Assembly: GCA_964349515.1 (NCBI GenBank)
Contig: CAYGHG010000017.1
Location: 1-32,462 of the forward strand
Direction: 5' to 3'
Source: an uncultured Spirochaetia bacterium
Lineage (GTDB): Bacteria > Oederibacteriota > PGYV01 > CAYGHG01
DNA: 32,462 nt
Part shown: one piece after another, positions 9,791-29,702 of the stretch
Layout: every line of letters starts with the position of its first letter
Numbering within the stretch: the first letter of the stretch is position 1
Translations under genes and position numbers: made by a program
The notes under the pieces: generated by a model
Told to the model about the DNA's origin: nothing
Databases searched by the model: none
The model's input: only the letters and a program-made list of their open reading frames with translations

Positions 9791-9823
9791 GCCTGTTATG
9801 ATTTATAAAAACGGAGGTGAAGT

Positions 9824-12193: not shown

Positions 12194-13135
12194 ATGAACT
12201 ATAAATACAAATATTCAGGGCTTTTTTTGAGTGCGGCGGTTTTTATAATATTCTTCAGTGCCGTATCGGTATATGCTGGCGGCGGGCCCGAACCGGTGAT
12301 TTTACAGCACGGCATGCAGGCGCCGGAGGCCGCAGCGCAGGGCCAAAAAAGTGAAGCCCCGGTGATAAAACCCGTGGCTGAAAAATACAGGCATCTTCTT
12401 GCTGAAATATCCGACATCAGAAACATTCCCGTAATTCACCTGGATGAAGCAAAAGCCCTGCTTGAAAGCGGCGAAGCTGTGTTCATAGACGCAAGGTCAA
12501 GGCAGGAGTATAATGCCTCGCATATACCGGGCTCGGAGTATATAGGAGCGGGGGATGCCCGCTATCGCATACCGTATCTTCGCGAAAAACTTGAGGGAAA
12601 GGTGCTGGTGCCTTACTGCCACGGCACGGCGTGCAGGCTCTCTGACAAGGTGGCGCAGAGTCTTTTTGACGCGGGCTACAGAAGGCTTGTAATTTTTAAC
12701 GGCGGATGGCCTGAATGGACACAGGCTTTTATGCCGGTTGAAAAGTATAATCCGCCTGAAACATACAGGTTCCTTGACGAGCCTGCGCCTTCAATAGCCT
12801 CAATAAGAAAAGTCAGCATTGAGCAGGCGCGGTATATTTTTGATAATGCACTGGCGCATTTTATGGATGCGGATGCAGAGGCAAAGTTTCATGATTTCAG
12901 GGTTCAGAATGCATACTCCATACCGCCCGAACGTTTCGACGAGAAAATGAGGGCTTATAACGGCATCTTTTTGAACGGCCCGGTTATTATATACGGCAGG
13001 GATATGTTCGGAATGAGGGCCTCTGAAGCGGCAAAAAGGCTGTATAGCGCGGGTTACAAGAGGGTGTTTTTAATGAAGGGGAGCCTTTCAAAGTGGGAAA
13101 AAGCGGGGCATCCGGTTTTTAAAAAAGCAAAGTAA
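12194..13135 (+). CDS. Exported/membrane-anchored tandem rhodanese-domain protein. Domain 1 has active-site loop CHGTACR (CX5R); domain 2 has no Cys.
   Basis: N-terminal hydrophobic anchor/signal. First rhodanese domain: FIDARSRQEY...VLVPYCHGTACRLSDKVAQ...GGWPEW. The second domain is degenerate. ATG at 12194 is preceded by AAGGAG. The track's 12173 start is a GTG inside the RBS. Confidence 0.8.
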   Translation: MNYKYKYSGLFLSAAVFIIFFSAVSVYAGGGPEPVILQHGMQAPEAAAQGQKSEAPVIKPVAEKYRHLLAEISDIRNIPVIHLDEAKALLESGEAVFIDARSRQEYNASHIPGSEYIGAGDARYRIPYLREKLEGKVLVPYCHGTACRLSDKVAQSLFDAGYRRLVIFNGGWPEWTQAFMPVEKYNPPETYRFLDEPAPSIASIRKVSIEQARYIFDNALAHFMDADAEAKFHDFRVQNAYSIPPERFDEKMRAYNGIFLNGPVIIYGRDMFGMRASEAAKRLYSAGYKRVFLMKGSLSKWEKAGHPVFKKAK

Positions 13136-13158
13136 ATCCCTCTATAAAACAATTCTGC

Positions 13159-13206
13159 TTGACTTTCTGATTGCGCCTGCTAATATATGCGTGTTAGCGC
13201 ATATAT
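13159..13206 (+). promoter_or_regulatory. Promoter (TTGACT, 16-nt spacer, TAATAT) with an overlapping palindromic operator ATATATGCG-TGTTAG-CGCATATAT. It lies upstream of the permease operon.
   Basis: 9-bp perfect inverted arms (13183-13191 / 13198-13206) with a 6-nt spacer TGTTAG. It closely resembles the arsR operator at 8390-8417 (TAATATAT outer half-sites, TGTT(C/A)G spacer). Confidence 0.5.
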
Positions 13207-13228
13207 GCATATATTATAGGAGTCTTCA

Positions 13229-14380
13229 ATGAACGATACGAAAAAAGCAATTTACATAATAGCAGGTTTTTTGATTCTGTTTTTCATCCCTTTTGAAAAC
13301 GCCGCCGTACGCGGCGCTGTCATGGAAGCCTTTTACATGGCTCAGGACTACGCCCGCGAGCACGTACTGCTGTGCCTGATACCCGCGTTTTTGATAGCGG
13401 GCGCCATTGCGGTTTTTATCAAGAGCGATTCCGTGCTGAAATACCTGGGGGCCGGCGCTAATAAAATCATTGCTTACGGTGTTGCTGCGGTTTCCGGCAG
13501 CGTGCTGGCTGTTTGTTCCTGTACGGTGCTTCCTCTATTCGCCGGGCTATATAAAAGAGGAGCCGGCATCGGGCCTGCGACAGCTTTTCTGTATGCGGGC
13601 CCTGCGATAAATGTGCTTGCCATAATACTGACCGCAAGAGTGCTGGGGTTTGAGCTCGGGGTGGCAAGGGTAATAGGCGCGGTGGTGTTCTCTATTGTAA
13701 TAGGGCTTCTCATGCAGCTATTTTTTTCAAAAGAAGAAGAGAAGAGGATGGAATCATTTCAGGCTGAAACCGAAAAGGGCAAGCCGGCTTTTAAGCTGGT
13801 TTCCTATTTTTTAGTCATGATTGCACTGCTTGTTTTTCTTAACTGGGGCAAAGACGAGTCCATGCCTGTATGGAACTCAATACATCAGGCCAAGTGGATA
13901 ATCTCGGGGATACTGCTGGCTGTACTTGTTTTTATGTCTGTTTTTTGGTTCGGGAAAGAAGAGCGAAAAGAGTGGTTTGCCGAGTCAGGCGGTTTTGCGC
14001 TGCAGATAATGCCGCTTTTATTTGCAGGGGTGCTGATTGCAGGTTTTCTTCTGGGCAGGCCCGGGCACAGCGGAATAATACCGGCGGAATGGATATCATC
14101 GCTTGTGGGCGGCAACTCAATAAAAGCAAATCTTTTCGCGTCAGTTGCGGGCGCTTTTATGTACTTTGCGACGCTGACGGAGATACCGATACTTCAAGGG
14201 CTGATCGGCTCGGGTATGGGAAAGGGCCCGGCGCTTGCGCTGCTGCTTGCAGGCCCGGCGCTCAGCCTGCCAAACATGCTTGTCATTAACAGTGTGATGG
14301 GTTTTAAAAAGACGGCTGTTTACACAGTGCTTGTAATAGTCATGGCCGCTGTCTCGGGGATGATATACGGAAGTATTTAA
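13229..14380 (+). CDS. DUF318 / ArsP-like permease (COG0701 family, conserved CxC in a TM helix).
   Basis: Polytopic membrane protein with the CSC-containing helix AVCSCTVLPLFAGLYKRGAGIGPATAFLYAGPAINVLAI. Its pairing with a small 'redox-active disulfide protein 2' and an ArsR is the typical genomic context of this family. Confidence 0.8.
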   Translation: MNDTKKAIYIIAGFLILFFIPFENAAVRGAVMEAFYMAQDYAREHVLLCLIPAFLIAGAIAVFIKSDSVLKYLGAGANKIIAYGVAAVSGSVLAVCSCTVLPLFAGLYKRGAGIGPATAFLYAGPAINVLAIILTARVLGFELGVARVIGAVVFSIVIGLLMQLFFSKEEEKRMESFQAETEKGKPAFKLVSYFLVMIALLVFLNWGKDESMPVWNSIHQAKWIISGILLAVLVFMSVFWFGKEERKEWFAESGGFALQIMPLLFAGVLIAGFLLGRPGHSGIIPAEWISSLVGGNSIKANLFASVAGAFMYFATLTEIPILQGLIGSGMGKGPALALLLAGPALSLPNMLVINSVMGFKKTAVYTVLVIVMAAVSGMIYGSI

Positions 14381-14408
14381 GAATGCCAAATAGAAAAGGA
14401 GGAAACTG

Positions 14409-14837
14409 ATGAGTGATTGCTGCAAAGGAAAGAAAGGCAGTTATGTTTATTCCTGTTCGGGTGCGGCGGATACGGGCTTCATAAGCGACAGGGTTGCGAG
14501 AATGCTCTCTGTTGCCGGGCACGGCAGTATGTACTGTCTCGCGGGGCTGGGAGGCGGTATTGAATCATTTGTAAAATCAGCTTCCGAAGCGGAGAGAAAC
14601 ATAGTTATTGACGGCTGTGCGGTCAAGTGCGGAAAGAAGATAATGGACAGGCATAGTATCTCATGCGAAAGCTATGTAGTCACAGATTTTGGTTTTAAAA
14701 AGGGTGAAACGGGAATGAGCGAAGAACTCGTGAGATATGCTTTTGTGAAAATCAACGAAGCGGTGGAAACAAAAACACCGTCTGAAAACGTCCAATCTTC
14801 AGGGCCCGGCCCGTGCTCTTGCGGGGGTAAGTGCTGA
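14409..14837 (+). CDS. Cys-rich DGC-domain protein (putative metal/metalloid-binding).
   Basis: Conserved IDGCAVKCG (DGC motif). Cys clusters at the N-terminus (MSDCCKG, YSCSG) and C-terminus (GPGPCSCGGKC). RBS AAGGAGG. Confidence 0.65.
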   Translation: MSDCCKGKKGSYVYSCSGAADTGFISDRVARMLSVAGHGSMYCLAGLGGGIESFVKSASEAERNIVIDGCAVKCGKKIMDRHSISCESYVVTDFGFKKGETGMSEELVRYAFVKINEAVETKTPSENVQSSGPGPCSCGGKC

Positions 14838-15226
14838 TGGAGCGCGCCCTTGAAATGTTCGCGGCCCTGTCGGATAAAACCAGGCTCAGGGCATACAGGC
14901 TGCTAATCAGGGCCGGCAGTGATGTTGCTGTATGCGAACTGATTGACGCCCTGCGGGAGTCGCAGTACAACGTGTCAAAACACCTTCAGGTTTTAAAAAA
15001 TGCCGGGCTGGTAAAAGAGGCGAAAAAAGGGCGCTGGTCGCTTTACTCTGCCGTAGAGGGCGCTGACTCGGGAATCGCTCAGGCAGTGCTGAAAATGCGC
15101 GAGGAAGTTTTTGAAGAGGATTACGGGTTTCTTAAAAAAAGGCTTGCTTTGAGGCGCAACGGCGAGATAGTTTCGTGCAAACTCGCGGGAGAACTCATGG
15201 AAAGTTTAAAAGGAGAAAAAAAATGA
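14837..15226 (+). CDS. Second ArsR/SmtB-family regulator, lacking the CVC As(III) site.
   Basis: wHTH LSDKTRLRAYRLLIRAGSDVAVCELIDAL...NVSKHLQVLKNAGLV. The site has a single Cys (AVC) instead of CVC. The ATG overlaps the upstream stop (TGATG). Confidence 0.85.
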   Translation: MERALEMFAALSDKTRLRAYRLLIRAGSDVAVCELIDALRESQYNVSKHLQVLKNAGLVKEAKKGRWSLYSAVEGADSGIAQAVLKMREEVFEEDYGFLKKRLALRRNGEIVSCKLAGELMESLKGEKK

Positions 15227-15456
15227 AAATTTCAGTGTTGGGCACGGGCTGCCAGAAATGCCACAAGCTTGAAGAACTGGCGAGAAAAGTGGTAAGTGAA
15301 AACAATATTAAGGCTGAAGTGGAAAAGGTAAGTGAGATAAAAAAGATAATGGAATTTGGTGTTATGATGACCCCTGCCCTGGCAATTGACGGCAAAGTTG
15401 TTCTTGCCGGAAAAGTGCCTTCGGAACAGGAAATAAAAAAACTGCTCGGAGCATAA
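15223..15456 (+). CDS. Small thioredoxin-fold 'redox-active disulfide protein 2' (CxxC = GCQKC).
   Basis: 77 aa. Start at MKISVLGTGCQKCHKL, preceded by AAAGGAG. The ATGA junction overlaps the ArsR2 stop. This family is characteristically adjacent to DUF318 permeases. Confidence 0.8.
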   Translation: MKISVLGTGCQKCHKLEELARKVVSENNIKAEVEKVSEIKKIMEFGVMMTPALAIDGKVVLAGKVPSEQEIKKLLGA

Positions 15457-15465
15457 GGAGGAAAA

Positions 15466-15945
15466 ATGAAGAGGTTATTAATCGCAGCAGGAGTACTGGC
15501 GGTTGCGGCCGTATTTTTGTTCGCCGGAAGCAAACCCAAAACGCAGGTTTCAGCCGAGCAGTCAAATCAGCCGGGAGCGGTAAGTTTAAACCGGGTTTCA
15601 AAGGAAACTGCGCCAGCTGTAAAGGAAAAAGACGGCGCAAAGAAGAAGTACAAGGTCACTTTTGTGGAGTTGGGCTCTGTACGCTGCATCCCATGTAAGA
15701 TGATGATACCGATAATGGAAGAGGTGGAGAGGCGTTTTGGCGACGAGGTTCTGGTGGTGTTTCATGACGTGTGGACGCAGGAGGGCCAGCCCTACGCGGA
15801 CAAGTATAAAATAAGGGGAATACCCACGCAGGTTTTTCTTGACGCTGACGGCAAGGAATTTTTCAGGCATACAGGTTTTTTTCCAAAAGAAGAACTTTTC
15901 AAGGTGCTTGAAAAGGGCGGGGTAAACATCAATGCCGGCAGCTAA
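15466..15945 (+). CDS. Exported TlpA/MauD-like thioredoxin (CxxC = CIPC).
   Basis: Signal peptide. Thioredoxin fold with VELGSVRCIPCKMMIP active site and the cis-Pro region IRGIPTQVFLDADGKEF. RBS AAGGAGG. Confidence 0.8.
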   Translation: MKRLLIAAGVLAVAAVFLFAGSKPKTQVSAEQSNQPGAVSLNRVSKETAPAVKEKDGAKKKYKVTFVELGSVRCIPCKMMIPIMEEVERRFGDEVLVVFHDVWTQEGQPYADKYKIRGIPTQVFLDADGKEFFRHTGFFPKEELFKVLEKGGVNINAGS

Positions 15946-16420
15946 AAAGAGCAGAAGCCTGAAAAAGGCAGGTAAAAAAAAGCGGCCGGCCCTTCGCAGG
16001 CAGCCTGCGAAAAAAAGAAAGCCGGTAAAAAAAGAAGCTGAAAAAAGGGTTTTTAAGCCGGGGCACGGCATAATCGCCGCAATATTAATAGGGGTTTTGA
16101 TTTTCTCCGCGGTATCGGTTCTATCCGGTGCGGATAAAGAGGTAATAATGATAACCGATTCAAAGGCCTGCAAATGCGTGAAGGTCAGGTGTATTTCGAT
16201 GGAAGAGCAGGTAAGGGAACAGCTTTCAAAAAGCAAAGCAGGGGCAAAGTTCACACTTATAGAGCTCAAAGACGAGAAACGCTCCAAACCGCTTATGGAT
16301 AAATACACCATGGGAATGGTGCCCTGCCTTGTTGTGGTGGACAAAAATGACAGCGTTGTTTACAGCGCGGGTGCATTTAACTTTAACACGGAAGAATTTT
16401 CAGCCGTGCTAAAAAACTGA
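15932..16420 (+). CDS. Membrane-anchored protein with a polybasic N-terminal tail and a thioredoxin-like C-terminal domain carrying an atypical CKC (CxC) motif.
   Basis: N-terminus MPAAKKSRSLKKAGKKKRPALRRQPAKKRKPVKKEAEKR, then one TM helix. Trx-like pattern (VIMITDSKACKCVKV ... MGMVPCLVVVD ... EEFSAVLKN). It overlaps the upstream gene by 14 nt. No RBS is evident. Confidence 0.5.
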   Translation: MPAAKKSRSLKKAGKKKRPALRRQPAKKRKPVKKEAEKRVFKPGHGIIAAILIGVLIFSAVSVLSGADKEVIMITDSKACKCVKVRCISMEEQVREQLSKSKAGAKFTLIELKDEKRSKPLMDKYTMGMVPCLVVVDKNDSVVYSAGAFNFNTEEFSAVLKN

Positions 16421-16431
16421 AAGGATGAGCG

Positions 16432-17148
16432 ATGATTGAACAGATATTTACTTCACTTACTCTTGCGCTTGAAAAGAGCGCGCTTATTGCCGTAGGAGCT
16501 TCTTTCTTATGGGGAATACTCAGCATTGTCTTGAGCCCGTGCCATCTGGCGAGCATACCTCTTATTATAGGGTTTGTGAGCTCACAGGAGGAAAAACTGA
16601 CTGTCCGCAAGGCATTCATAATTTCGCTCTTGTTTTCAGCGGGTATTCTTATTACAATTGCCATTATAGGGCTGATAACGGGGCTGGCTGGCAGGATGCT
16701 CGGAGACCTGGGAATCTGGGGGACGCTCGGAGTATCGGCGGTGTTCTTTGTAATAGGGCTTCATCTGCTCGGACTTTTTGAGCTGCCTTTTATAAGCGGC
16801 GGAATGAACCAGCCGGGGTTTACAAAAAAAGGTTATGTGGCGGCTTTTGTGCTCGGGCTGGTATTCGGGCTTGCTCTCGGGCCGTGTACTTTTGCCTTTA
16901 TGATGCCGATACTTGCGGTTGCTTTCAAACAGGCCGCGGCCAACTGGTTCTATTCATTCACGCTTGTAGCGGCTTACGCCATAGGGCACTGCGGGGTAAT
17001 AGTGCTCGCAGGCACTTTTACGGAGGCTGTTGAGAAATACCTGAAATGGGGCGAGAAGTCAAAGGCTGTAATAATTATTAAAAAAACCTGCGGCGTGCTG
17101 ATATTGGCGGCAGGGGTTTACATGATAGCGGGTATAGTTAAATTTTAA
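16432..17148 (+). CDS. ccdA: CcdA/DsbD-family transmembrane thiol:disulfide electron transporter.
   Basis: Six TM helices with the two conserved membrane Cys residues in IVLSPCHLASIPL and LALGPCTFAFMMPILA. Confidence 0.85.
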   Translation: MIEQIFTSLTLALEKSALIAVGASFLWGILSIVLSPCHLASIPLIIGFVSSQEEKLTVRKAFIISLLFSAGILITIAIIGLITGLAGRMLGDLGIWGTLGVSAVFFVIGLHLLGLFELPFISGGMNQPGFTKKGYVAAFVLGLVFGLALGPCTFAFMMPILAVAFKQAAANWFYSFTLVAAYAIGHCGVIVLAGTFTEAVEKYLKWGEKSKAVIIIKKTCGVLILAAGVYMIAGIVKF

Positions 17149-17159
17149 GGAGGAAAGAC

Positions 17160-18161
17160 ATGAAGAAAAAAAAGGCAGGAAAAAAAGTAAAATCCGCAAA
17201 GACACCAAAAAAGCCCCCCGCAGCCGCTGCTGTTACATGGAAAGACACTCTGACAGGTTCGGTGATAATATGTGCGGTGGCGGCGGCTGTTGCCCTGATG
17301 TACACGGGCACGCGGGTGCTTGCGGGAGTTGACAAGATTGATACGCAAGGCGGCGCGGAAACTTCGGCGTCATCAGAACCTGCGCCCGAGACGCTTAAAA
17401 AAATACCGCTTCCGGCAAAGTTCAGGCATTTGGCAAATAATGTGGCTAAAAAAGAAGACATACCCAAGATACACATAGAAGAGGCAAAGGCGCTTTTTGA
17501 AAGCGGCCGGGCTCTTTTTATCGACGCGAGAAGCGAACAGGAGTATAAGCAGTCCAGGATACCCGGCTCAATTTTCATAAGCGCGGGCGACCAGCCTTCA
17601 AAGATAGAAACATTGGCCGAGAAGCTGAAGGGCAAAGTGCTTGTCCCTTACTGCCACGGCGCGGGCTGCCATTTATCGGACAAAGTCGCCCACAGGCTGC
17701 ATGATATGGGATACAAAAAGGTCGCGATATTTTTCGGAGGCTGGCCGGAATGGACACAGGCGGCAATGCCCATAGAGGAGTACACTCCTCCCGCTGAGTT
17801 TGCGCATCTTTTCAAGGAAACCGGTTCTGTGAGTGAAATCAGGGAGGTCACGCTTGAAGAGGCAAAATTTCTTTATGACAACGGGCTGGGTATTTTTGTG
17901 GATGCGGACTACCGCGAAAAATACAACGAAAAGACCATATCAGGAGCGATATCAATCCCTTATGACAGTGTAAAACAGATATACCCGTCTTACAGAGGTT
18001 ATCTGCTGCAGAAACCGGTTATTGTTTATTGCCATGGCCGCGGAGGGAAATCAAAAAAAGCCGCTGAAGAACTGTATAATGAAGGGATAAAGAAAATTAA
18101 TGTATTTATCAACGCAATACCGCTCTGGGAGCAAAACAGCTACCCTATGATAAAGAGGTAG
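17160..18161 (+). CDS. Membrane-anchored tandem rhodanese-domain protein with a polybasic N-terminal tail (paralog 2; loops CHGAGCH and CHGRGGK).
   Basis: Strong RBS AAGGAGG. N-terminus MKKKKAGKKVKSAKTPKKPP, then a TM helix. Domain 1: FIDARSEQEY...VLVPYCHGAGCHLSDKVAH...GGWPEW. Domain 2: VIVYCHGRGGKS. Confidence 0.8.
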   Translation: MKKKKAGKKVKSAKTPKKPPAAAAVTWKDTLTGSVIICAVAAAVALMYTGTRVLAGVDKIDTQGGAETSASSEPAPETLKKIPLPAKFRHLANNVAKKEDIPKIHIEEAKALFESGRALFIDARSEQEYKQSRIPGSIFISAGDQPSKIETLAEKLKGKVLVPYCHGAGCHLSDKVAHRLHDMGYKKVAIFFGGWPEWTQAAMPIEEYTPPAEFAHLFKETGSVSEIREVTLEEAKFLYDNGLGIFVDADYREKYNEKTISGAISIPYDSVKQIYPSYRGYLLQKPVIVYCHGRGGKSKKAAEELYNEGIKKINVFINAIPLWEQNSYPMIKR

Positions 18162-18167
18162 GTGAAA

Positions 18168-18635
18168 ATGGAAAAAATTAAAGCTGTTTTAAGCAACAAA
18201 TATTTACTCGCGGCGTGCAGGATCTCAATAGGCGCGGTATTTGTACTCGCCAGTGTGGGGAAGATTCTCTTTCCTCATGAATTTGCGAGGGATGTTTACT
18301 CGTATATGCTGATGCCGGCTTTTGTTGTGCCTGCGTTTGCGGCCATACTGCCTTGGATAGAGTTTGCTTCCGGGCTCCTGCTTTTGGCAGACATAAAACC
18401 TAAGAGTTCGGCGGTGCTGGTTATGGGGCTGTTGTTGATGTTTATTGCGGCCATACTCTGGACAGTTGCAAACGGAATAGAGATTTCCTGCGGTTGTTTT
18501 GACATACTGTTTCCCGGGGAGAAAGCAGGCTGGTCAACAATTATCAGGGATGTGGTCATGATGGCAGTTATTGCGCCTGTGATGTTTTTTGACCACAATG
18601 ACGTAAGGATATACGGGCTGATTAATAAAAAATGA
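18168..18635 (+). CDS. MauE/DoxX-like membrane protein with the conserved CGCF motif.
   Basis: Four TM helices. Motif EISCGCFDILFPG is typical of MauE-family proteins, which are often fused or adjacent to rhodanese. ATG at 18168 is preferred (RBS AAGAGGTAGG) to the GTG at 18162. Confidence 0.7.
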   Translation: MEKIKAVLSNKYLLAACRISIGAVFVLASVGKILFPHEFARDVYSYMLMPAFVVPAFAAILPWIEFASGLLLLADIKPKSSAVLVMGLLLMFIAAILWTVANGIEISCGCFDILFPGEKAGWSTIIRDVVMMAVIAPVMFFDHNDVRIYGLINKK

Positions 18636-18674
18636 TTAAGCGGTTTATTCACCGTAAACCGGGGAGACAGTGTA

Positions 18675-20114: not shown

Positions 20115-22661
20115 ATGATAAATCCGGAAAAACTTACAATTAAGGCTCAGGAGGCATTGAACAGTGCGCATTCGATTGCTTCTGAAAATTCCAACCAGCA
20201 GATAATGCCTGTGCATGTGCTGTTGGCAATGCTGGGTGATGAGGCGGGATTGATAAGAGCAATAGCGGAAAAAGCCGGGGTTTCTTCCTCGAAACTTAAG
20301 GCTGCCGCTGAAAAGGAAGTGTCCGGGCTGCCAAAAGTATCCGGTACTGCTGAGGTTTACATTTCACAGGAGACTGCGGGTATGCTGGAGGCTGCTTCCA
20401 AAAAGGCAAAAGAGATGAAGGATGAGTTTATCAACACAGAACATTTTTTGCTTGCAATGTCAGAACTTGGCGCGGTTAAGGAAGCCGGTCTCTCGGCGAA
20501 ACTGCTGCTGAAAGCACTGGCTGAAATCCGGGGCGGGCATCAGGTAACGGACCGCTCGCCTGAGGAAAAATACAGGGCGCTGAAAAAATACGGCAAGGAT
20601 TTGGTGGAGCTCGCTGAGAATAACAAACTGGACCCTGTGATAGGCCGGGACGCTGAAATCCGGCGTGTCATGCAGGTGTTATCCAGGCGGACAAAGAACA
20701 ACCCTGTGTTAATCGGAGAGGCAGGGGTGGGAAAGACCGCGGTAGCGGAGGGCGTCGCGATACGAATTCACAAAGGGGATGTGCCGGATAACCTTAGAAA
20801 CAAAAGAATCATCGCGCTTGACATGGGCGCGCTGGTAGCCGGCGCAAAATTCAGGGGGGAGTTTGAAGAGCGGCTTAAAGCCGTGCTCAAGGAAGCATCG
20901 GATGCAGACGGAAAAATAATTCTGTTCATAGACGAAATGCACCTGCTGGTAGGCGCGGGAAAAACTGAGGGCGCGATGGATGCGGCAAATCTGCTGAAAC
21001 CCGCGCTGTCGCGCGGCGAGCTGCAGGCAATAGGCGCGACCACGCTTAATGAATACAGGCTTCACATAGAAAAAGATGCCGCACTTGAGCGGCGATTTCA
21101 GCCGGTGCTTGTGGCAGAGCCTTCTGTTGAAGACACCATTTCCATCCTGCGCGGTCTTAAAGAAAGATACGAAGTACACCACGGGGTCAAAATACTTGAT
21201 TCTGCGATTATCGCAGCCGCAAAACTTTCGTCGCGTTACATACAGGGCAGGTTCATGCCTGATAAGGCAATTGACCTGATAGACGAGGCAGCTTCAAAAC
21301 TCAAACTTGAGATAGGTTCAAAACCGTACGAAGTGGACGGCCTGGAAAGAGAAATAGCAAGGCTTGAAACAGAACGAGAGGGCATAAGGCAGGAAAAAAA
21401 CGAAAACAGAGGTTCTGCGAAGCTTAAAGAGATAGAAAAAGAGATATCGAACTTAAAAGGGGAAAAAGATGCCCTTACGGCACGCTGGCTGAAGGAAAAG
21501 GAAGCCATAGAAAAGGTAAGAAGCCTTAAGGGTGAAATAGAACAGCTGAAAGCAGACGGAGAAAGGCATGAGCGTGAGGGGGAGTATGAAAAAGCAGCCA
21601 GAATCAAATACGGCGCTCTTAATGAAAAGGAAAAACAGCTTGCAGAGTCTGAAAAACTGCTTTCTTAAAACGCGGGAGCATCAAGGCTGCTTCAGGAAGA
21701 GGTGACTCCGGAGGAAATAGCAGGCATAGTGTCGTCCTGGACGGGAATTCCTGTTTCGAAAATGCTGGAGGCTGAGAGTGAAAAACTGCTGCACATGGAA
21801 GACGAACTAAAAAAGCGCGTGGCCGGACAGGACAATGCCGTGGCAGTGATATCCAACGGAATCAGGCGCAGCAGGGCGGGCGTTGCAGACTCTTCAAGGC
21901 CGCTCGGCGTGTACATGTTTCTTGGGCCGACAGGCGTAGGAAAGACAGAACTTGCCAAGTCACTTGCGTCATTCCTTTTTGATGATGAAAACTCGCTCGT
22001 GCGCATTGACATGTCCGAGTACATGGAAAAGCACGAAGTCTCAAGGCTTGTAGGAGCGCCCCCGGGATACATAGGGTATGAGGAGGGCGGGCAGCTGACA
22101 GAAAAGGTAAGGCGCAAGCCCTACTCGGTGATACTGCTCGATGAGATCGAAAAGGCGCACCCTGATGTATTTAACATACTGCTTCAGGTATTTGACGACG
22201 GCAGGTTAACCGACGGACAGGGCAGGACCGTAAATTTCAGAAATTCAATAATCATAATGACCTCCAATATTGCCTCGCACCTTCTGGCTGAAAAAATAGC
22301 AGGCGAAGAAGAAATGGAATCAGAATTAAAGAAACACTTCCGGCCGGAGTTCTTAAACAGGATAGACGACATAATCCTGTTCAAACGCCTGGATCGTGCT
22401 GTGATGGAAGGCATAGTTGACATGAGGATGAGCGAGCTTAATGCCCGGCTCGCGGAGCGCGGCATAATGGTGGAGGCTGACGCAGAGGCTAAAAAGCTTC
22501 TTGCCGAAGAAGGCTACGATGAGGTCTATGGCGCAAGGCCGCTGCGTCGTGTAATTCAGCGCCAGGTAGAAAACAAACTCGCATCCCTGCTGCTCGCGGG
22601 GAAAGTAAAAGAAGGAACGAAACTTGTTCTGACCGTGAAAGAAGGCGTCTTGTCCTTTTAA
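20115..22661 (+). pseudogene. clpB: clpB (Hsp100 disaggregase) interrupted by a single in-frame TAA at 21666-21668. The two parts stay in the same frame.
   Basis: First ORF: Clp-N, NBD1 (Walker [10 protein letters not shown]; Walker B ILFIDEMH) and the coiled-coil M-domain. Second ORF continues in frame 0: [23 protein letters not shown]2 [15 protein letters not shown], sensor/arginine-finger GARPLRR. Combined length is about 848 aa, as for a full ClpB. The second part has no credible independent RBS. Confidence 0.8.
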
Positions 22662-22834: not shown

Positions 22835-22907
22835 ATGAAAATAACATTTTCTTGTTTAAACTTCATTTTAGTAATATAATATTTGCACAAACCTAAAGGA
22901 GGTTTTT

Positions 22908-23744
22908 ATGAAAAAGATTCTTGTTTTGTTTTGCGTTTTGGTATTTGCATCTTCTCTTACCGCTTCGACGGAATCGCTGATCAACGCTGAAGGGAAGGAT
23001 TATAAAATATCTCTTTCAGCGGAGCTCGGGACTGTGTTTGTGGCTTCTCATAAGATACAGTTTGGGGAAACAGGGACTTTGTTTGATTATGTGGAAGACG
23101 GAAACCAGAATGTACTGTTTCCTTTTTCGCGCTACACTGCCGAACTCAGGCTTTTTGACAGGCACGCTGTAGTCTTTCTTTATCAGCCGCTGGAAGTTTT
23201 TACGGAAGCCATAGTTGACCGCGATGTTACGGTATATGACGTGACTTTCCTTGCCGGGACTCCTATGAAACTAAAATATGGATTTACTTTTTACAGGGCG
23301 AGCTATCTATACTACTTCATCAAAGAAAACAACATGGAACTGGGAGCGGGGCTTTCTCTTCAGATCCGCAATGCTTCCATATCATTTGCATCTGCTGACG
23401 GAGAACAGTTTGTAACCTCTCAGAATATAGGGCCCGTGCCTATTATCAAGCTTGCGGGCAAATACACCTTTGACAACGGAATATGGACCGCTCTGGAGGC
23501 TGACGGCTTTTACGCCAACAGCGAATTTTTTAACGGAGCATCGTTCCCGTTCGAGGGCGCGATATGGGACATTAGCGGCCGCGCCGGAATTGAACTTAAA
23601 AACGGCATCAAGCCCTTCATTAATGTAAGATTCCTGGCCGGAGGCGCAAAAGGCACATCGCGCTACGAAGACGCAGAAGGCGACGGTTTTGCCAACAACT
23701 GGCTGAGCACGCTCTCGCTGACGCTCGGGGTTGTTTTAGATTAA
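22908..23744 (+). CDS. Exported hypothetical protein (beta-rich, possible outer-membrane protein).
   Basis: Strong RBS AAAGGAGG. Signal peptide MKKILVLFCVLVFASSLTAS. Alternating amphipathic composition. I recognise no family motif. Confidence 0.6.
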   Translation: MKKILVLFCVLVFASSLTASTESLINAEGKDYKISLSAELGTVFVASHKIQFGETGTLFDYVEDGNQNVLFPFSRYTAELRLFDRHAVVFLYQPLEVFTEAIVDRDVTVYDVTFLAGTPMKLKYGFTFYRASYLYYFIKENNMELGAGLSLQIRNASISFASADGEQFVTSQNIGPVPIIKLAGKYTFDNGIWTALEADGFYANSEFFNGASFPFEGAIWDISGRAGIELKNGIKPFINVRFLAGGAKGTSRYEDAEGDGFANNWLSTLSLTLGVVLD

Positions 23745-23920: not shown

Positions 23921-23931
23921 GAGGTAATGCG

Positions 23932-26892
23932 TTGAAGAACATTTTTATTACTTTATTACTGCTGCTAAATACATCTGCTTTTGCAGCAGTTTCTACTGTT
24001 AATATCGACGCTTCCTCTGACGAGCATTTCTATGAGCGCGACATGGCTTTTGGAACCAATTTTCTCGGCGAGTGGACTGATTTCAAACTTTACAGGGACA
24101 ATGTTTACCGCTTTCAGCAGGCCGGCACGAGATTCTTACGGTTTCCCGGCGGCTCAAACTCAAACGAATACCACTGGAACGGTGACGGTTATTATGATGG
24201 TGATAAAGTGTGGCACATCAATAACAGCCCAAATGTCACCTCTTTTCAGAGGGGGTTCTATAACTTATCAGTCCATCGCGGTTCATCCTCTATAGGCTAC
24301 GGCAAGCCTGCTGTTGTAACAGACGGAGATTTGGATACATACTGGCTGAGTTATCCGGGCGCCGAAGGGCTGCAGTGGGTTTATATTGACATACAAACCG
24401 CATCATACCAGCCTGTGGCTGTGACAAGGATTGTCATTGACTGGGGCGACCCTTACGCCTCGCAGTACAAAATACAGTACTCAAACGCAAACTGGAACTA
24501 CACCGGGCACTGGGCTTATAATGACACTGCCTGGGCAGATACAACACAGAATAACGTCGCAGGCGCCGGAGGGCAGGCGGATTTGAGCTTTGACCAGGTA
24601 AGTGCCAAGTATGTCCGCGTGCTGTGTGAGACTTCTTCGTCAGCCGGAGGGCAGATTGCAATTAAAGAGATAAAACTATTCGGACCCGCCGGGCAGATAA
24701 CCAACAATGTAAATAGTGTCGCCCAGACGCCTTCTGTTGCTTCATCCATGGCTTTAGGGGACGTTTTCCACGAATACGACACAATGGATTTTGAGCAGTT
24801 TATCGGAGTAGCAAAATCAATGACCCCGCATGCAGAGCCCATGATAACCATAAACTTTTTCACAGGCACGGTTCAGGAGGCGGCTGACTGGGTCTATTAC
24901 GCAAATGTACACAGAGGATACAATATTAAGTACTGGGAGATCGGAAATGAAAACTGGGGCAACTGGGAGTCAGGCGGGCCCTGTGACCCTGTTAACTACG
25001 CAAAACGTTTCATCGCGCTGTATGACGCCATGACTGCGGTTGACCCTTCGATTATTATCGCGCCTCAGTTTAACGGCGTCCCTGACAGGTCAAATGTGAC
25101 CATGACCGCGGGAAACAATCCGGGAGATTACGATTATTATATCGATACTTTTTTAAAGTACCTGGCAGATAACGGCAGGGCAGGCATTTTAAAAGGGCTT
25201 TCTGTTCATAAATACCCGTCGTGGATGCCTGTCGCGGAAGCAACTCCGCTTGCGCAGGTTGACATATGGGACACGGAAGTACCGATGGTAAAATCCTGGA
25301 TAAATAACAGATGCTCAAACCCTGAAGAGGTGAAAATATGGCTGACAGAATATAATGACGGCATAGACAGCGGTTTTACGAACCGATTCTACAACTCGCT
25401 TTTTGTGACCGCGTACACTCTTAACTTCCTGCGTAACGGCGGGGACTACACCTGTTTTTTCAGGCCCTTTGGCACGCCCGGGCCGGGCCAGACGGATAAA
25501 ACAATTTTTTCAGATTTCGGGTACCTTGAGGGCGGCGGGCTTTACGGCAGCCTCGCTGATTACAGGTGCCAGCCGAGATCCTCCTTTTACGCTTTTGAGA
25601 TGATGTACAACAGGTTTTCCGCGGCTGATGAATTTGGAAATACTCTGGTTGCGGCTTCGTCATCGCTTTCTGCGCTGAAAGTTTACGCCAACAGGAGAGG
25701 CGACAGAAAACTGTCAATTGCCTTTATTAATACCGATCAATCAAACACGGTAAACGCGGCTGTATCAATAACGGGGTTTACTCCGCTCAGCCAGGCAGAG
25801 GAAGTAACATATACCCGTCAGAACTATTCCTGGGTGCATAACGGCACTAATTCCTACGCAAACCCCAATACCCCGCCGGTAATAACCTCATACAGCGGCG
25901 CCGCGCAGAATTTTACCTTTGTATCGCCGCCGTATTCGGTAAAAATTTTAACCATGTATGATTCCTTGCAGCCTACCCTTGTGCCTTCACACACGCCTAC
26001 AATGCTGCCGACGCCTACGATAACTCCGACTCCGGTACCGAACGGAGGCGCGCTTGTGGACGACTGCGAGGACGGAGACTTAAGAAATCTGTGGGGAGGG
26101 CAGTGGTCTGTGTATGGTGATGGAATATCTTTATATCCGCAGGCTGTTGATTCGATGACCTGCGACGGCGCGGGGGCGGCAGGTTCTTCGTGCTACATGC
26201 GGGTAACAGGCACCGTACTTAACAACACGTGGGGTTTCGGTGTAAACTGCCCGCTTAATTCGTCGTGGAATCCGACTGACATAAGCATGTATGACGGAAT
26301 ATTTTTTCACTGCAAAGGCTCTGCAAACAGCGCCAGAATGGCAATGCCCCAGTATGATACGGCTGATGGGAATTTCGGCGCTGACTTTATGGTAAATACA
26401 TACTGGGCATATTATGAGATACCTTTTTCAGCCCTGATATTCGCGGTATGGGCGACGCCGGGCCCCGTCTGGACGGCTCAGAACATACAGGCTGTGCAGT
26501 TCCAGCCTGACGGCGGTTATTCGGGGGAGGTTTACAGGGAGATAGCTGTAGATAATGTGGGTTTTTACAGGAATACGCCCACTCCCGAACCTACGGTTGT
26601 AGAGCTGCCTGCCGCGCTTACAGATGTAAAGGCCGTGCCTTCTCTTTGTGTACTGCAGGATGGCTGCAGCGGAATAAGGTTTACGGGCCTTACCGCGAAT
26701 AATAAGATTTCGATTTATTCACTGGAAGGCAGCCTGGTTCATTACGCGGAAGTACAGACGGCAGACGGCACATATTTCTGGAAAATAGCGGGCATTAGAA
26801 AAGGAAAAGCAGCCGCGCCGGGAATATACATTTATGTAATACAGGGTGAAGACGGAAGCATGGTTAAGGGGAAGGCCGCGGTGGTACGGTAA
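23932..26892 (+). CDS. Large secreted glycoside hydrolase (clan GH-A TIM barrel; GH51/GH44/GH30-like, family not resolved). It has an inserted F5/8 type C (discoidin) domain, a Pro/Thr linker, a further beta-sandwich domain and a T9SS-type C-terminal sorting (Por_Secre_tail / FlgD-Ig-like) domain.
   Basis: TTG start with RBS AGAGGT. Signal peptide. Motifs: FLRFPGGSNSNEYHWNGDG and YWEIGNENWGNWESGG (acid/base Glu) with a later TEYND (nucleophile region). Discoidin-like VVTDGDLDTYWLS...AKYVRVLCETSS...IKEIKLFG. Linker PTLVPSHTPTMLPTPTITPTPVP. C-terminus ISIYSLEGSLVHY...GTYFWKIAG...GIYIYVIQGEDGSMVKGKAAVVR. Confidence 0.75.
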   Translation: MKNIFITLLLLLNTSAFAAVSTVNIDASSDEHFYERDMAFGTNFLGEWTDFKLYRDNVYRFQQAGTRFLRFPGGSNSNEYHWNGDGYYDGDKVWHINNSPNVTSFQRGFYNLSVHRGSSSIGYGKPAVVTDGDLDTYWLSYPGAEGLQWVYIDIQTASYQPVAVTRIVIDWGDPYASQYKIQYSNANWNYTGHWAYNDTAWADTTQNNVAGAGGQADLSFDQVSAKYVRVLCETSSSAGGQIAIKEIKLFGPAGQITNNVNSVAQTPSVASSMALGDVFHEYDTMDFEQFIGVAKSMTPHAEPMITINFFTGTVQEAADWVYYANVHRGYNIKYWEIGNENWGNWESGGPCDPVNYAKRFIALYDAMTAVDPSIIIAPQFNGVPDRSNVTMTAGNNPGDYDYYIDTFLKYLADNGRAGILKGLSVHKYPSWMPVAEATPLAQVDIWDTEVPMVKSWINNRCSNPEEVKIWLTEYNDGIDSGFTNRFYNSLFVTAYTLNFLRNGGDYTCFFRPFGTPGPGQTDKTIFSDFGYLEGGGLYGSLADYRCQPRSSFYAFEMMYNRFSAADEFGNTLVAASSSLSALKVYANRRGDRKLSIAFINTDQSNTVNAAVSITGFTPLSQAEEVTYTRQNYSWVHNGTNSYANPNTPPVITSYSGAAQNFTFVSPPYSVKILTMYDSLQPTLVPSHTPTMLPTPTITPTPVPNGGALVDDCEDGDLRNLWGGQWSVYGDGISLYPQAVDSMTCDGAGAAGSSCYMRVTGTVLNNTWGFGVNCPLNSSWNPTDISMYDGIFFHCKGSANSARMAMPQYDTADGNFGADFMVNTYWAYYEIPFSALIFAVWATPGPVWTAQNIQAVQFQPDGGYSGEVYREIAVDNVGFYRNTPTPEPTVVELPAALTDVKAVPSLCVLQDGCSGIRFTGLTANNKISIYSLEGSLVHYAEVQTADGTYFWKIAGIRKGKAAAPGIYIYVIQGEDGSMVKGKAAVVR

Positions 26893-26979
26893 GGGGCAAT
26901 TAAAAACAGTTAATTGATTTATAGCAACGTGTGATTGGACGTTATATTGGCATTCCGGGAAGACCCGTTAAAATTAAAG

Positions 26980-27016
26980 TTGAAAAATAAGATTTCATAT
27001 TATATAATTATAATAT
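26980..27016 (+). promoter_or_regulatory. Promoter (TTGAAA, 17-nt spacer, TATAAT) with an overlapping inverted repeat ATATTATA-TAAT-TATAATAT. It lies upstream of the RHH-PIN pair.
   Basis: -35 at 26980-26985 and -10 at 27003-27008. The 8-bp inverted arms (26997-27004 / 27009-27016) span the -10, as expected for an antitoxin-autoregulated TA promoter. Confidence 0.5.
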
Positions 27017-27038
27017 AAAATCATATAAGGAGGATGCC

Positions 27039-27299
27039 ATGAAAAAGGTAAAGGCATTGTCTGTTACGATACCTAATGAGCTTACCGAAAAGATATACAG
27101 GATAAGTGAAGATGAGATGAAAAGCGTAAGCTCCATTGTAAGCGAAGCTGTGATGACTTACTGCATTAAAAAAGACTTGGAAAAAGTCCGTGCCGAGTTT
27201 TCTGAAAGAGCCCGTAAAATGGGGATAGTGAGCGAAGATGACATAAACAGGGTGATACATGAGTACAGAAAAGAACGTAAAAATAAAAATAACCGTTGA
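27039..27299 (+). CDS. Ribbon-helix-helix (CopG-like) antitoxin, putative.
   Basis: 86 aa with strong RBS AAGGAGG. The N-terminal beta-strand-like KALSVTIPNELTEKI is followed by helices. It lies immediately upstream of, and overlaps, a PIN-domain gene. Confidence 0.6.
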   Translation: MKKVKALSVTIPNELTEKIYRISEDEMKSVSSIVSEAVMTYCIKKDLEKVRAEFSERARKMGIVSEDDINRVIHEYRKERKNKNNR

Positions 27300-27681
27300 T
27301 ACAAACATCCTTATATCCGCTTTTATATACCCGGGTATGACGGTCGTTAAAATATTTGACATGATAATGGACGGCAAGGTGCTGCTGGGCCTGTCAGAGG
27401 ATATTTTAAGGGAGTTCGCCGGCGTTTGTGTCCGCAAATTTGACTATGAACCGGAAGAAGCTATCCGGCATACGGATATTATCAGGCAGAGCTCGGAAAT
27501 CGTAAGGCCGAAAGATAGAGTGAGGATTATCAGGGATGAACCTGATAACAGGATTCTTGAATGCGCGGCGGAGTATGAAGCGGATTATATCGTTTCAGGT
27601 GATAAACACATACTTGATGTAAAAAAATACAGGGGGATTGAAATTCTGACTCCGGCTGAATTTATAAAAAAACTTCCGTGA
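27259..27681 (+). CDS. PIN-domain toxin (TIGR00305-like putative RNase).
   Basis: N-terminal KIKITVDTNILISAFIYPG (first acidic residue of the PIN fold) and C-terminal acidic residues (DYIVSGDKHIL). About 140 aa. It overlaps the antitoxin gene in a different frame. Confidence 0.75.
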   Translation: MSTEKNVKIKITVDTNILISAFIYPGMTVVKIFDMIMDGKVLLGLSEDILREFAGVCVRKFDYEPEEAIRHTDIIRQSSEIVRPKDRVRIIRDEPDNRILECAAEYEADYIVSGDKHILDVKKYRGIEILTPAEFIKKLP

Positions 27682-27753
27682 ATATTGAAATCGATTGTAT
27701 GCTGACAGAGGTAATTGCTCTATTATTCAAGCCGGAATTCCTTCTCTGCCCTG

Positions 27754-27782
27754 TTGTACTGAACAGCTGCTTTTGATATAAT
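27754..27782 (+). promoter_or_regulatory. Promoter TTGTAC, 17-nt spacer, with an extended -10 TGATATAAT. It lies upstream of the GT4 gene.
   Basis: -35 at 27754-27759, TG at 27774-27775, and TATAAT at 27777-27782. Confidence 0.4.
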
Positions 27783-27821
27783 ATTTAAAATGAATTCAAA
27801 TAACAGCTTCGGAGGCACAAA

Positions 27822-29057
27822 ATGAAAATCGGAATCCTGACAAACGAATTCCCGCCAAACGTCTATGGAGGCGCAGGCGTGCACGTTGAATATCTGACTG
27901 ATGAGATGAAAAAACTCAATGACGGCGCCAATAAGGTCGAGGTTGTATGTTTCGGCACCCAGAAGGTAAGGGAACCGAACCTGGAGGTTGACGGGGTATC
28001 CGCGGATTATACATATGAGGTAAAGGACGAGAAGCACCGTAAATTTCTGGATACTGTATTTAAAAACACGGTAATGGCCGGCGAGCTGGGCGAGGTGGAC
28101 GTAGTCCACTGTCATACCTGGTACAGCCACTTCGCGGGAATCCTCGTCAGAGAACTTCATCAGGTGCCGCTGGTGCTATCAACACACTCTCTGGAACCGC
28201 ACAGGCCCTGGAAGGCAGAGCAGCTTGGGACCGCTTATTTCGGCTCTTCGTGGGTGGAAAAAACAGCTTATGAAAACGCGGACGGCGTAATAGCGGTTTC
28301 TGAAGCGATGAAAAAAGATGTGCACGATCTGTACAACGTGCCCTTTGAAAAAATCAGGGTAATTCACAACGGGATAAATCTTTCCCAGTACAAGCCGAAG
28401 CCGGACAATGCAGTGCTTGACAAATACAAAATTGACAGGGACAAGCCGTTTATTCTGTTTGTGGGAAGAATAACACGGCAAAAAGGCATAATCCACCTGG
28501 TCAATGCCCTGAAATATCTTAAAGAAGGCTTCCAGATTGTGCTTTGCGCAGGCGCGCCAGATACAAAGGAAATAGCGGCTGAGATGGAAAAGGCGGTAGC
28601 CGAGGCAAAGAAAGAAGCAAAAAACCCCATACTGTGGATTCCCGAGATGGTTCCTAAAGATGATGTAATAACACTGTACACAATGGCTTCCATATTTGTA
28701 TGCCCCTCTGTGTATGAGCCTTTCGGCATTATCAACCTTGAGGCTATGGCCTGCGAAACACCGGTAGTCGCTACAAAAGTGGGCGGTATACCGGAGGTTG
28801 TAATCCCGGGCGAGACGGGGCTGCTGGTGCCTATTGATAATAAAGGCGGAGCTGACGTAGAGCCTAAAGACCCTGATAAGTTTGCGCGCGACCTGGCTGA
28901 GGCGGTTAACTCCATAGTTGACAAGCCCGACACACTGAAAGCGATGGCGTTAAAATCCCGCAAAAGAGTGGAAGACCACTTCAGCTGGATTTCTATAGCG
29001 GCCAAAACGGTTGATTTCTATGCGGAGCTCATAAGGAATTTTAAAAAGAAAGGGTGA
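27822..29057 (+). CDS. GT4-family glycosyltransferase (actinobacterial GlgA/GlgM-like glucosyltransferase).
   Basis: N-terminus MKIGILTNEFPPNVYGGAGVHVEYL is characteristic of the GT4 glycogen-synthase-like family. C-terminal GT-B motif EPFGIINLEAMACETPVVATKVGGIPEVV. Confidence 0.85.
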   Translation: MKIGILTNEFPPNVYGGAGVHVEYLTDEMKKLNDGANKVEVVCFGTQKVREPNLEVDGVSADYTYEVKDEKHRKFLDTVFKNTVMAGELGEVDVVHCHTWYSHFAGILVRELHQVPLVLSTHSLEPHRPWKAEQLGTAYFGSSWVEKTAYENADGVIAVSEAMKKDVHDLYNVPFEKIRVIHNGINLSQYKPKPDNAVLDKYKIDRDKPFILFVGRITRQKGIIHLVNALKYLKEGFQIVLCAGAPDTKEIAAEMEKAVAEAKKEAKNPILWIPEMVPKDDVITLYTMASIFVCPSVYEPFGIINLEAMACETPVVATKVGGIPEVVIPGETGLLVPIDNKGGADVEPKDPDKFARDLAEAVNSIVDKPDTLKAMALKSRKRVEDHFSWISIAAKTVDFYAELIRNFKKKG

Positions 29058-29063
29058 ACAAAT

Positions 29064-29702
29064 ATGGCAGTAAAGAAAAAGAAAACTGCTAAGAAAAAGA
29101 GTGTAAAAAAAACTGTAAAGCCTGCGCAGGTAAAGCAGCCTGAAAACGCGGGCCCTGACAGCCTGAAACTGATGATGGCAGGCATAGCGGCTGTTGCTGT
29201 GGTGATAATAATGATTATAGCCGCGGCAGCGCTGAAGCCGAAGCCGAGTGCACCGGATTCAAGCGGGATTACCCTTGCAGAATCACAGGAGCAGCCGGAT
29301 ACGGCGGTGGCTGATGAGAATGTAAAGCCTGATTTTAAAAAACTGTTTCAGGAAGTATCTTTAAAGCAGGAAATTCATAAAATAGACATTGACGCGGCAA
29401 AATATCTGTTTGATTCGGGAAGGGCTGTATTTGTGGATTCGCGCAGTAAAGGCGAATACGACAGGCAGAGAATTAAAGGCTCGATTTTTCTTCCTGTAAA
29501 CGCTTCCCAGGATGAAATAGACAGGGCCGCGAAAAAATACCGGGGAAAAGTTCTGGTAACATACTGCCACGGCAGCGGCTGCCACCTGGCTGACAAGGTG
29601 GCTTACAGGCTGTTTGATGCCGGCCATAAAAAACTCGCCATATTTTGGGGAGGCTGGCCAAAGTGGGACGAGCACAAATATCCCGAAACGCTCGGGAATT
29701 AA
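29064..29702 (+). CDS. Membrane-anchored single-domain rhodanese with a polybasic N-terminal tail (paralog 3; loop CHGSGCH).
   Basis: N-terminus MAVKKKKTAKKKSVKKTVKPAQVKQPE, then a TM helix. Rhodanese domain FVDSRSKGEY...VLVTYCHGSGCHLADKVAY...GGWPKW. It starts 6 nt after the GT4 stop. Confidence 0.8.
   Translation: MAVKKKKTAKKKSVKKTVKPAQVKQPENAGPDSLKLMMAGIAAVAVVIIMIIAAAALKPKPSAPDSSGITLAESQEQPDTAVADENVKPDFKKLFQEVSLKQEIHKIDIDAAKYLFDSGRAVFVDSRSKGEYDRQRIKGSIFLPVNASQDEIDRAAKKYRGKVLVTYCHGSGCHLADKVAYRLFDAGHKKLAIFWGGWPKWDEHKYPETLGN

Follow-up and report, generated by a model that had tools for sequence, protein, structure and literature searches.

What do three exported rhodaneses, each with two cysteines in its active-site loop, do in the envelope of an uncultured bacterium? 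Their genes lie on a stretch of 32,462 nucleotides (the window), which spans positions 1 to 32,462 of the forward strand of contig CAYGHG010000017.1 in assembly GCA_964349515.1, from an uncultured Spirochaetia bacterium (GTDB lineage Bacteria; Oederibacteriota; PGYV01; CAYGHG01). An original prediction, made from the sequence alone, had picked out open reading frames (ORFs) at 12194, 17160 and 29064 as membrane-anchored rhodanese paralogs with an unusual C-x4-C catalytic loop. In a computational follow-up, we found that the second paralog is coupled to a gene for the membrane protein MauE and that this coupling recurs across many bacterial lineages, including as gene fusions. We propose, with a probability that we put at roughly 0.55, that the three rhodaneses act outside the cytoplasm as dithiol/disulfide relay proteins in the MauE pathway; they are probably thiol-disulfide partners of MauE rather than classical sulfur-transfer or arsenate-reducing enzymes.

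Exported rhodaneses with a two-cysteine loop

All three plus-strand ORFs are real, and their translations reproduce exactly the catalytic cores quoted in the original prediction: VLVPYCHGTACRLSDKVAQ in paralog 1, VLVPYCHGAGCHLSDKVAH in paralog 2 and VLVTYCHGSGCHLADKVAY in paralog 3. These genes, and the MauE gene that accompanies paralog 2, are as follows (TM, transmembrane):

12194..13135, + strand: paralog 1, exported two-domain rhodanese and first gene of the operon; loop CHGTACR at 12617-12637, GGWPEW at 12701-12718
17160..18161, + strand: paralog 2, Lys-rich tail, TM anchor and two-domain rhodanese; domain 1 loop CHGAGCH at 17652-17672, GGWPEW at 17736-17753, domain 2 loop CHGRGGK at 18030-18050
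18162..18635, + strand: MauE/DoxX-family protein with four TM helices, starting directly after the paralog 2 stop codon; CGCF at 18489-18500 in the TM3-TM4 loop
29064..29702, + strand: paralog 3, Lys-rich tail, TM anchor and single rhodanese domain; loop CHGSGCH at 29565-29585, GGWPKW at 29649-29666

The motif common to the three copies is Y-C-H-G-x-x-C-[R/H]-L-[S/A]-D-K, followed about 22 residues on by GGWP[E/K]W. All belong to the Pfam Rhodanese family PF00581, with E-values of 2e-24, 7e-27 and 6e-13 for paralogs 1, 2 and 3 (86, 94 and 50 bits; cut-off 22.2), and the AlphaFold2 (AF2) model of paralog 2 adopts the alpha/beta rhodanese fold. Pairwise identity between their catalytic domains is 51–61%, which marks them as true paralogs rather than chance matches.

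An N-terminal membrane anchor had been predicted for all three. This holds for paralogs 2 and 3, each with a Lys-rich tail and one TM helix, whereas the N-terminus of paralog 1, MNYKYKYSGLFLSAAVFIIFFSAVSVYA/GGG, resembles a cleavable signal peptide when judged by eye. The longest ORF of paralog 1 opens at a GTG at 12173; the ATG at 12194 is the likelier start because a promoter-like TTGACA-17-TAACAT sits at 12142-12170. The proposed extracytoplasmic location of the catalytic domains agrees with the positive-inside rule, given a Lys-rich N-terminal tail followed by a TM helix. In the AF2 model of paralog 2, a helix (27-54) and a disordered linker (59-74) precede folded domains with predicted local distance difference test (pLDDT) scores >90.

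The same model places both loop cysteines where they had been predicted to lie, within the catalytic loop: a strand (160-164) runs into a seven-residue loop (C165-H171), and a helix starts at L172. The loop is two residues longer than that of 6mxv, the best sequence match. Sulfurtransferase active-site loops have six residues; seven is reportedly the loop length of Cdc25 in Bordo and Bork’s comparison of rhodaneses with Cdc25, and the loop of low-molecular-weight protein tyrosine phosphatase (LMW-PTP) is also of seven residues. When the full two-domain model was searched against the PDB with Foldseek, only generic tandem rhodaneses were returned. The second rhodanese domains, on which the original prediction was silent, have no Cys in paralog 1 and a C-x5-K loop of their own, CHGRGGK, in paralog 2; the Cys of that loop is not kept among homologs, and the second domain of paralog 2 is probably non-catalytic or accessory.

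The loop itself turns out not to be unusual. A profile search with the rhodanese domain recovered 13,244 cluster representatives at E ≤ 1e-3, of which 2,712 remain at E ≤ 1e-10. Among the 144 best representatives absent from the first homolog search (out of 150 listed), 134 carry [VI]-x-[YF]-C-x4-C-x2-[SA] at the catalytic position, often in proteins with two or three tandem domains, and both loop cysteines are invariant across 51 aligned close homologs. The residue after the second Cys varies family-wide (His 23%, Asp or Glu 19%, Arg 7%): paralog 1 does end its loop in Arg and paralogs 2 and 3 in His, as had been reported, but a Cdc25/Acr2-type CX5R fails as a family signature. As judged from their sequences, the products of the three genes are extracytoplasmic, either tethered to the membrane or secreted, and belong to a large rhodanese subfamily marked by GGWxxW and by a seven-residue loop with two invariant cysteines, Y-C-x-G-x-x-C-x-x-S, which is present in the exported rhodanese domain of every window copy. 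The original prediction was to fall if the loop belonged to a common, already-characterised subfamily; common this one is, characterised in function it is not. The nearest curated models are rhodanese_LYCAU (NF041203; best score 80 bits, cut-off 115) and rhoda_near_glyco (NF045521; best score 77 bits, cut-off 145), and the window proteins fall below both cut-offs.

Genomic coupling of the rhodanese to MauE

The MauE gene that begins where paralog 2 ends was overlooked in the original prediction. Its Pfam match to MauE (1e-25) is far stronger than that to DoxX (7e-4). MauE proteins from Caldithrix (H1XRV2) and Desulfatibacillum (B8FLW7) can replace DsbB in Escherichia coli, an activity that needs a periplasmic CXC between TM3 and TM4, and their predicted quinone site is lined by conserved Lys, Glu and Phe (preprint 10.64898/2026.03.05.709764). 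We aligned 60 MauE proteins—59 from the loci described below, plus the window’s own—and found CGCF after TM3 to be invariant, and a Lys in TM1 and PWxE in TM2 to be conserved; these features correspond to the active site and quinone site of the preprint (10.64898/2026.03.05.709764). The charge distribution of these proteins, read by the positive-inside rule, places the CGCF loop in the periplasm.

A genome scan seeded only on rhodanese motifs yielded 78 loci with a total of 68 C-x4-C rhodanese ORFs. Two of these ORFs lie at contig ends; in 56 of the 66 assessable loci, MauE is the next gene downstream on that strand, and the two genes mostly overlap by 4 bases. The remaining ten have no adjacent MauE, and seven of them come from Spirochaetia genomes carrying several paralogs. 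As named in their records, the paired loci include Goldbacteria, Spirochaetia, FCPU426, Ignavibacteria/Bacteroidota, Zixibacteria, Firestonebacteria, Desulfobacterales, Desulfovibrio, Anaerolineales and Eubacteriales. Testing the link from the other side gave the same picture, with an anchored C-x4-C rhodanese directly upstream of MauE in all five contigs picked through MauE similarity. Fusions are also found: at least 13 distinct protein clusters hold PF07291 and PF00581 in one protein. Both domain orders occur in the two fusions examined—MauE, TM helix, rhodanese in one (L036) and TM helix, rhodanese, TM helix, MauE in the other (L052)—and in each an extra TM helix keeps the rhodanese periplasmic.

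From this coupling we suggest a disulfide relay in which the partner of MauE is not a thioredoxin. The authors of the MauE preprint assume a partner of the thioredoxin fold, and the word ‘rhodanese’ is absent from their text (10.64898/2026.03.05.709764). Our literature search for rhodanese together with MauE or DoxX found nothing relevant, and the systematic genomic coupling and fusion of C-x4-C rhodaneses with MauE appears to be new within the literature searched.

Among 54 neighbourhoods, we found no third broadly conserved neighbour of the rhodanese-MauE pair, the best being DUF1573 in 11 of the 54. At these 11 loci, from Ignavibacteria/Bacteroidota and one uncultured lineage, an Ig-like DUF1573 lipoprotein with SCGCT is encoded directly upstream of the pair (loci listed: L029-L034, L039, L040, L065, L069, L071, L073; e.g. 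L033:2736-3434) and is a candidate substrate or third component. Two Desulfobacterales-type loci (L082:4772-5350 and L083:4740-5363) run from an exported thioredoxin through rhodanese and MauE to a UbiE-like methyltransferase; that family includes quinone-biosynthesis methyltransferases, so the last gene hints at a quinone link. Elsewhere, an ArsR-type helix-turn-helix fused to a rhodanese domain (L086:5773-6450; 225 residues) is found downstream of a rhodanese-MauE pair, at a distance of about 2.3 kb. One contig that was binned under ‘Candidatus Methylomirabilis sp.’ (L009, DYJU01000019.1) carries a pair 65% identical to the Goldbacteria-type copy, which may reflect mis-binning or horizontal transfer.

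The MauE partnership is also visible in the history of the paralogs. In a neighbour-joining tree built from the C-x4-C domains, the window copies group with Goldbacteria and Spirochaetia sequences in a clade whose loop reads CHGxGC[H/R]. All members outside this clade are MauE-adjacent, bar one deep outlier (L079), which makes MauE pairing the ancestral state. Within the clade, lineage-specific duplications have produced two types, single-domain (copy 3) and two-domain (copies 1 and 2); of the window copies, only copy 2 has a CGC-bearing MauE adjacent or fused. Copies that have lost their MauE neighbour often lie beside ArsR-ACR3-ArsC (L002, L013, L016), as does copy 1. The earlier suggestion that three copies were retained for specialisation by substrate finds no support in the tree, which shows only duplication within lineages and the relocation of some copies to sites beside ars genes; the pattern is compatible with sub-functionalisation, possibly tied to metalloid stress. 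At L002:2571-10956, an ars-like operon from Spirochaetota runs ArsR, ArsC, DGC, ArsP_1, CcdA, DUF2798, an unannotated gene, Trx_3, Trx, a CdhD-like gene, C-x4-C rhodanese, ACR3, a methyltransferase and DsrE; the CdhD-like gene and the methyltransferase are a hint of chemistry on methyl groups or organo-metalloids.

A proposed relay, its gene neighbourhood and the alternatives

Pfam and NCBIfam scans of the whole window showed that paralogs 1 and 2 bracket one tightly packed run of plus-strand genes, nowhere more than 94 bases apart, which continues beyond paralog 2 with MauE/DoxX and MgtE. Between the two rhodaneses lie, in order:

13229..14380, + strand: ArsP_1-type permease with a CSC motif (Pfam/NCBIfam)
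14409..14837, + strand: Cys-rich DGC-domain protein (Pfam)
14831..15226, + strand: ArsR-family regulator within the operon; one Cys only, CVC motif absent (Pfam)
15175..15456, + strand: cytoplasmic MTH895/ArsE-family thioredoxin-like protein, CQKC (Pfam/NCBIfam)
15466..15945, + strand: exported thioredoxin with a signal peptide, CIPC (Pfam/NCBIfam)
15932..16420, + strand: membrane-anchored thioredoxin-like protein with Lys-rich tail, TM helix and CKC (weak Thioredoxin_8 Pfam match, below cut-off)
16432..17148, + strand: CcdA/DsbD-type transmembrane electron transporter with two PC motifs, ending 12 bases ahead of paralog 2

The product of 15932-16420 has a Lys-rich tail and TM anchor like those of rhodaneses 2 and 3 and is a candidate further envelope redox component. 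Upstream of the operon, arsR (CVC motif), ACR3 and an LMWP-type arsC occupy 8430-10243, and SufBD and SufC (10248-12103) lie on the opposite strand between this ars set and the operon. Paralog 3 begins 7 bases past a GT4 glycosyltransferase gene and has OEP and HlyD genes downstream. Elsewhere in the window, a ClpB homolog (20115-22661) is split into two same-frame ORFs of 517 and 319 residues by one in-frame TAA at 21666-21668 (CTT TCT TAA AAC); a nonsense mutation, a pseudogene or an error of assembly could explain this. Among the ORFs at 95-1216, 22908-23744 and 23932-26892, two (373 and 278 residues) gave no Pfam match and the third, a 986-residue protein, matched only an F5/8 type C domain.

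In the relay that we propose, the two loop cysteines would cycle between a dithiol and an intraloop (or mixed) disulfide. An intraloop disulfide is plausible by analogy with LMW-PTP, in which Cys12 and Cys17 of the loop C12-x4-C17-R18 form one reversibly (PMC2172955). The MauE encoded downstream of paralog 2 would oxidise the rhodanese loop through its periplasmic CGC and send the electrons on to the quinone pool in the manner of DsbB; the oxidised rhodanese would then pass its disulfide to envelope substrates, a DsbA-like role on a rhodanese fold. CcdA and the exported thioredoxins, encoded just upstream, would form an opposing reductive branch, analogous to DsbD with DsbC or CcmG, and may reduce one or more of the rhodanese paralogs. 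Paralogs 1 and 3, as lineage-specific duplicates, presumably share this one MauE or depend on CcdA and thioredoxin instead. The original prediction had the disulfide cycle resolved by the neighbouring thioredoxins. This is plausible, with exported thioredoxins and CcdA just upstream of copy 2, but the most conserved partner is MauE, adjacent in the great majority of loci and fused in some. The loop position expected to bind an anion is often acidic, which we count in favour of the relay.

Several observations weigh against a MauE-rhodanese relay. An AF2 model of a natural rhodanese-MauE fusion (P0315, alignment A5) has a predicted template modelling score of 0.66 and pLDDT of 59-76 at the CGC loop, with no confident docking. 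No rhodanese is needed for MauE to oxidise E. coli DsbA, and thioredoxin-fold domains occur as fusions in 8.2% of MauE entries (10.64898/2026.03.05.709764). In L082 and L083 a thioredoxin gene stands ahead of the pair, and the rhodanese could there be an accessory rather than the direct partner. The CcdA and thioredoxin genes beside paralog 2, together with the architecture of the fusion protein TsoB, point to reduction of the loop and not to its oxidation, and paralogs 1 and 3 have no adjacent MauE.

A rival reading, which we consider unlikely, takes the rhodaneses as an unfused, all-Cys version of TsoB. TsoB (NCBIfam NF045694) is a rhodanese/DsbD/thioredoxin fusion selenoprotein, listed in PMC13188914 with the motif UxxxxU and selenocysteine (Sec) at both U positions. 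The rhodanese would then be the terminal reductase of the CcdA/thioredoxin pathway, with cytoplasmic thioredoxin as the electron source, CcdA and then exported thioredoxin as carriers, and the rhodanese C-x4-C as the last station before a periplasmic substrate (sulfenate, polysulfide, selenite/tellurite or arsenate), and MauE would be functionally separate or act on something else. Paralog 2, CcdA and the exported thioredoxin (TrxP) do match TsoB model positions 39-161, 175-395 and 470-568; the order Trx, Trx-like, CcdA, rhodanese is kept in three other loci (L005, L006, L008); and the Spirochaetota homolog in L002 shares its operon with CcdA and thioredoxins but not with MauE. All window scores, however, fall far below the TsoB cut-off (45, 42 and 22 bits against 805). 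CcdA lies near the rhodanese in only 3 of 54 neighbourhoods, against 56 of 66 loci for MauE, and the fusions found are with MauE, with no DsbD fusion among the 150 best representatives as inspected by motif and length only.

A classical sulfurtransferase or persulfide carrier is a weaker contender still, and we judge it quite improbable: the first Cys would hold a persulfide from thiosulfate or polysulfide, the second would resolve or protect it, and MauE/DoxX would be a DoxD-like quinone-linked partner in sulfur oxidation. The rhodanese fold with its strong PF00581 matches, nearest solved folds that are sulfurtransferases, organisms that are mostly anaerobes of sulfidic habitats (judging by record titles) and the DsrE gene of the L002 operon would all suit such a function. 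Against it stand the long AF2 loop, seven residues rather than six, the lack of conserved basic loop residues, with position i+6 often Asp or Glu, and scores of 41-49 bits for GlpE (cut-off 102) and 30-32 bits for PspE (cut-offs 102 for NF007627 and 126 for TIGR02981). The membrane partner is MauE rather than DoxX by Pfam match, and the activity demonstrated for MauE is protein disulfide formation (10.64898/2026.03.05.709764). On loop length, acidic i+6 and sub-threshold GlpE and PspE scores, we rejected the classical sulfurtransferase as a family-level reading. We hold it very improbable that paralog 1 at least, with CHGTACR as CX5R, is an arsenate reductase or phosphatase of the Acr2/Cdc25 type that acts together with the neighbouring ars genes. 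This reading draws on the C-x5-R in the seven-residue loop of paralog 1, on the nearby arsR-ACR3-arsC set and on the MauE-less homologs beside ArsR-ACR3-ArsC elsewhere (L002, L013, L016), yet the Arg is not kept even in ars-linked copies (His in L013 and L016), and the His of HCX5R is replaced by Tyr in all three window copies, of which copies 2 and 3 also have His for Arg. Arsenate reduction for ACR3 efflux is cytoplasmic, whereas this domain is exported, and a cytoplasmic LMWP-type ArsC is already encoded. As a family-level reading this too was rejected: an H-C-x5-R with invariant Arg is not found, and loop length is all that matches.

The relay could also be read more broadly, although we find this extension somewhat doubtful. 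The C-x4-C rhodanese would be the native, dedicated partner of MauE and the primary DsbA-equivalent disulfide donor, on a rhodanese fold, in many phyla, most of them anaerobic (Goldbacteria, Spirochaetota, Ignavibacteria, Zixibacteria, Desulfobacterota, Anaerolineae). The Desulfatibacillum and Caldithrix MauE proteins, assayed with DsbA as a foreign partner, might then be among those it serves; neither genus was named among the 120 MauE hits listed. If the proposals made here are right, thiol-disulfide exchange in the envelope has taken up a second protein fold, a function can be offered for thousands of ‘rhodanese-like domain-containing proteins’ now annotated as sulfurtransferases, and a candidate native partner can be named for the only recently described MauE pathway. 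The presence of Sec at what would be the same loop positions in TsoB would also be explained. The ‘sulfurtransferases’ of the window would then be parts of an envelope redox operon, together with CcdA, exported thioredoxins and an ArsP-type permease, beside a genuine arsR-ACR3-arsC set.

Comparison with known redox systems

The only solved structure that we found with this loop is a structural-genomics entry, BH2092 of Bacillus halodurans (PDB 3nhv, 3o3w), whose loop YCWGPACNGATK aligns without gaps to YCHGxGCHLSDK (E 6e-12); a literature search for BH2092 found no paper. BH2092 differs from the window proteins in being short, in having no TM anchor in the deposited chain and in lacking GGWPxW.

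Other proteins resemble the window rhodaneses in loop or in fold. The P-loop of LMW-PTP and ArsC (C-x4-C-R-S) likewise presents C-x4-C-[R] in a seven-residue cradle loop, but on an unrelated fold, a case of convergence, and with an Arg that is essential there and not conserved in C-x4-C rhodaneses. PspE, GlpE, Cdc25 and Acr2 have the rhodanese fold itself and a catalytic Cys at the same position between strand, loop and helix. Cdc25 matches the window proteins in loop length, and Cdc25 and Acr2 need HCX5R, a signature that the window family does not conserve. PspE and GlpE have a six-residue loop with a single Cys, again not conserved here, and with their longer loop and sub-threshold scores the window proteins fall outside the GlpE/PspE-type sulfurtransferases. 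PspE is nonetheless periplasmic, and this single-Cys rhodanese can stand in for DsbA in supporting disulfide formation (PMC5403849).

Cooperation between a membrane protein of the MauE clan and a rhodanese has a precedent in Mycobacterium tuberculosis, where DoxX interacts with the rhodanese-family thiol oxidoreductase SseA in a DoxX-SseA(-SodA) complex (PMC9227533). The likeness ends at several points. We take SseA to be a cytoplasmic tandem rhodanese with a single catalytic Cys, DoxX to lack the CGC, and the doxX and sseA genes not to be adjacent, all unlike the window system.

TsoB shares with the operon a rhodanese domain, a two-residue motif of the same spacing (UxxxxU against CxxxxC), a DsbD-type TM part and thioredoxin parts. 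The window genes are separate and in a different order, with Cys codons and no in-frame TGA, and they fall outside TsoB membership; motif spacing and component parts are what the two have in common. From the motif list of PMC13188914, the UxxxxU of TsoB would lie in the rhodanese loop. A further difference lies in MauE, of which we know no counterpart in TsoB.

The closest functional parallel would be with the oxidative-folding relays. DsbB-DsbA, VKOR-thioredoxin and MauE-MauD all set a quinone-linked protein with four TM helices and periplasmic redox cysteines beside, or in fusion with, an exported protein bearing a redox-active Cys pair, which is also the arrangement of MauE and the C-x4-C rhodanese. 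To our knowledge, in all established bacterial relays of this kind (MauE-MauD as proposed) the soluble or tethered partner has the thioredoxin fold. The partner proposed here differs in combining a rhodanese fold with C-x4-C where the others combine a thioredoxin fold with CxxC; what we propose is accordingly worded as a protein that would work like DsbA, and not as one that is a DsbA.

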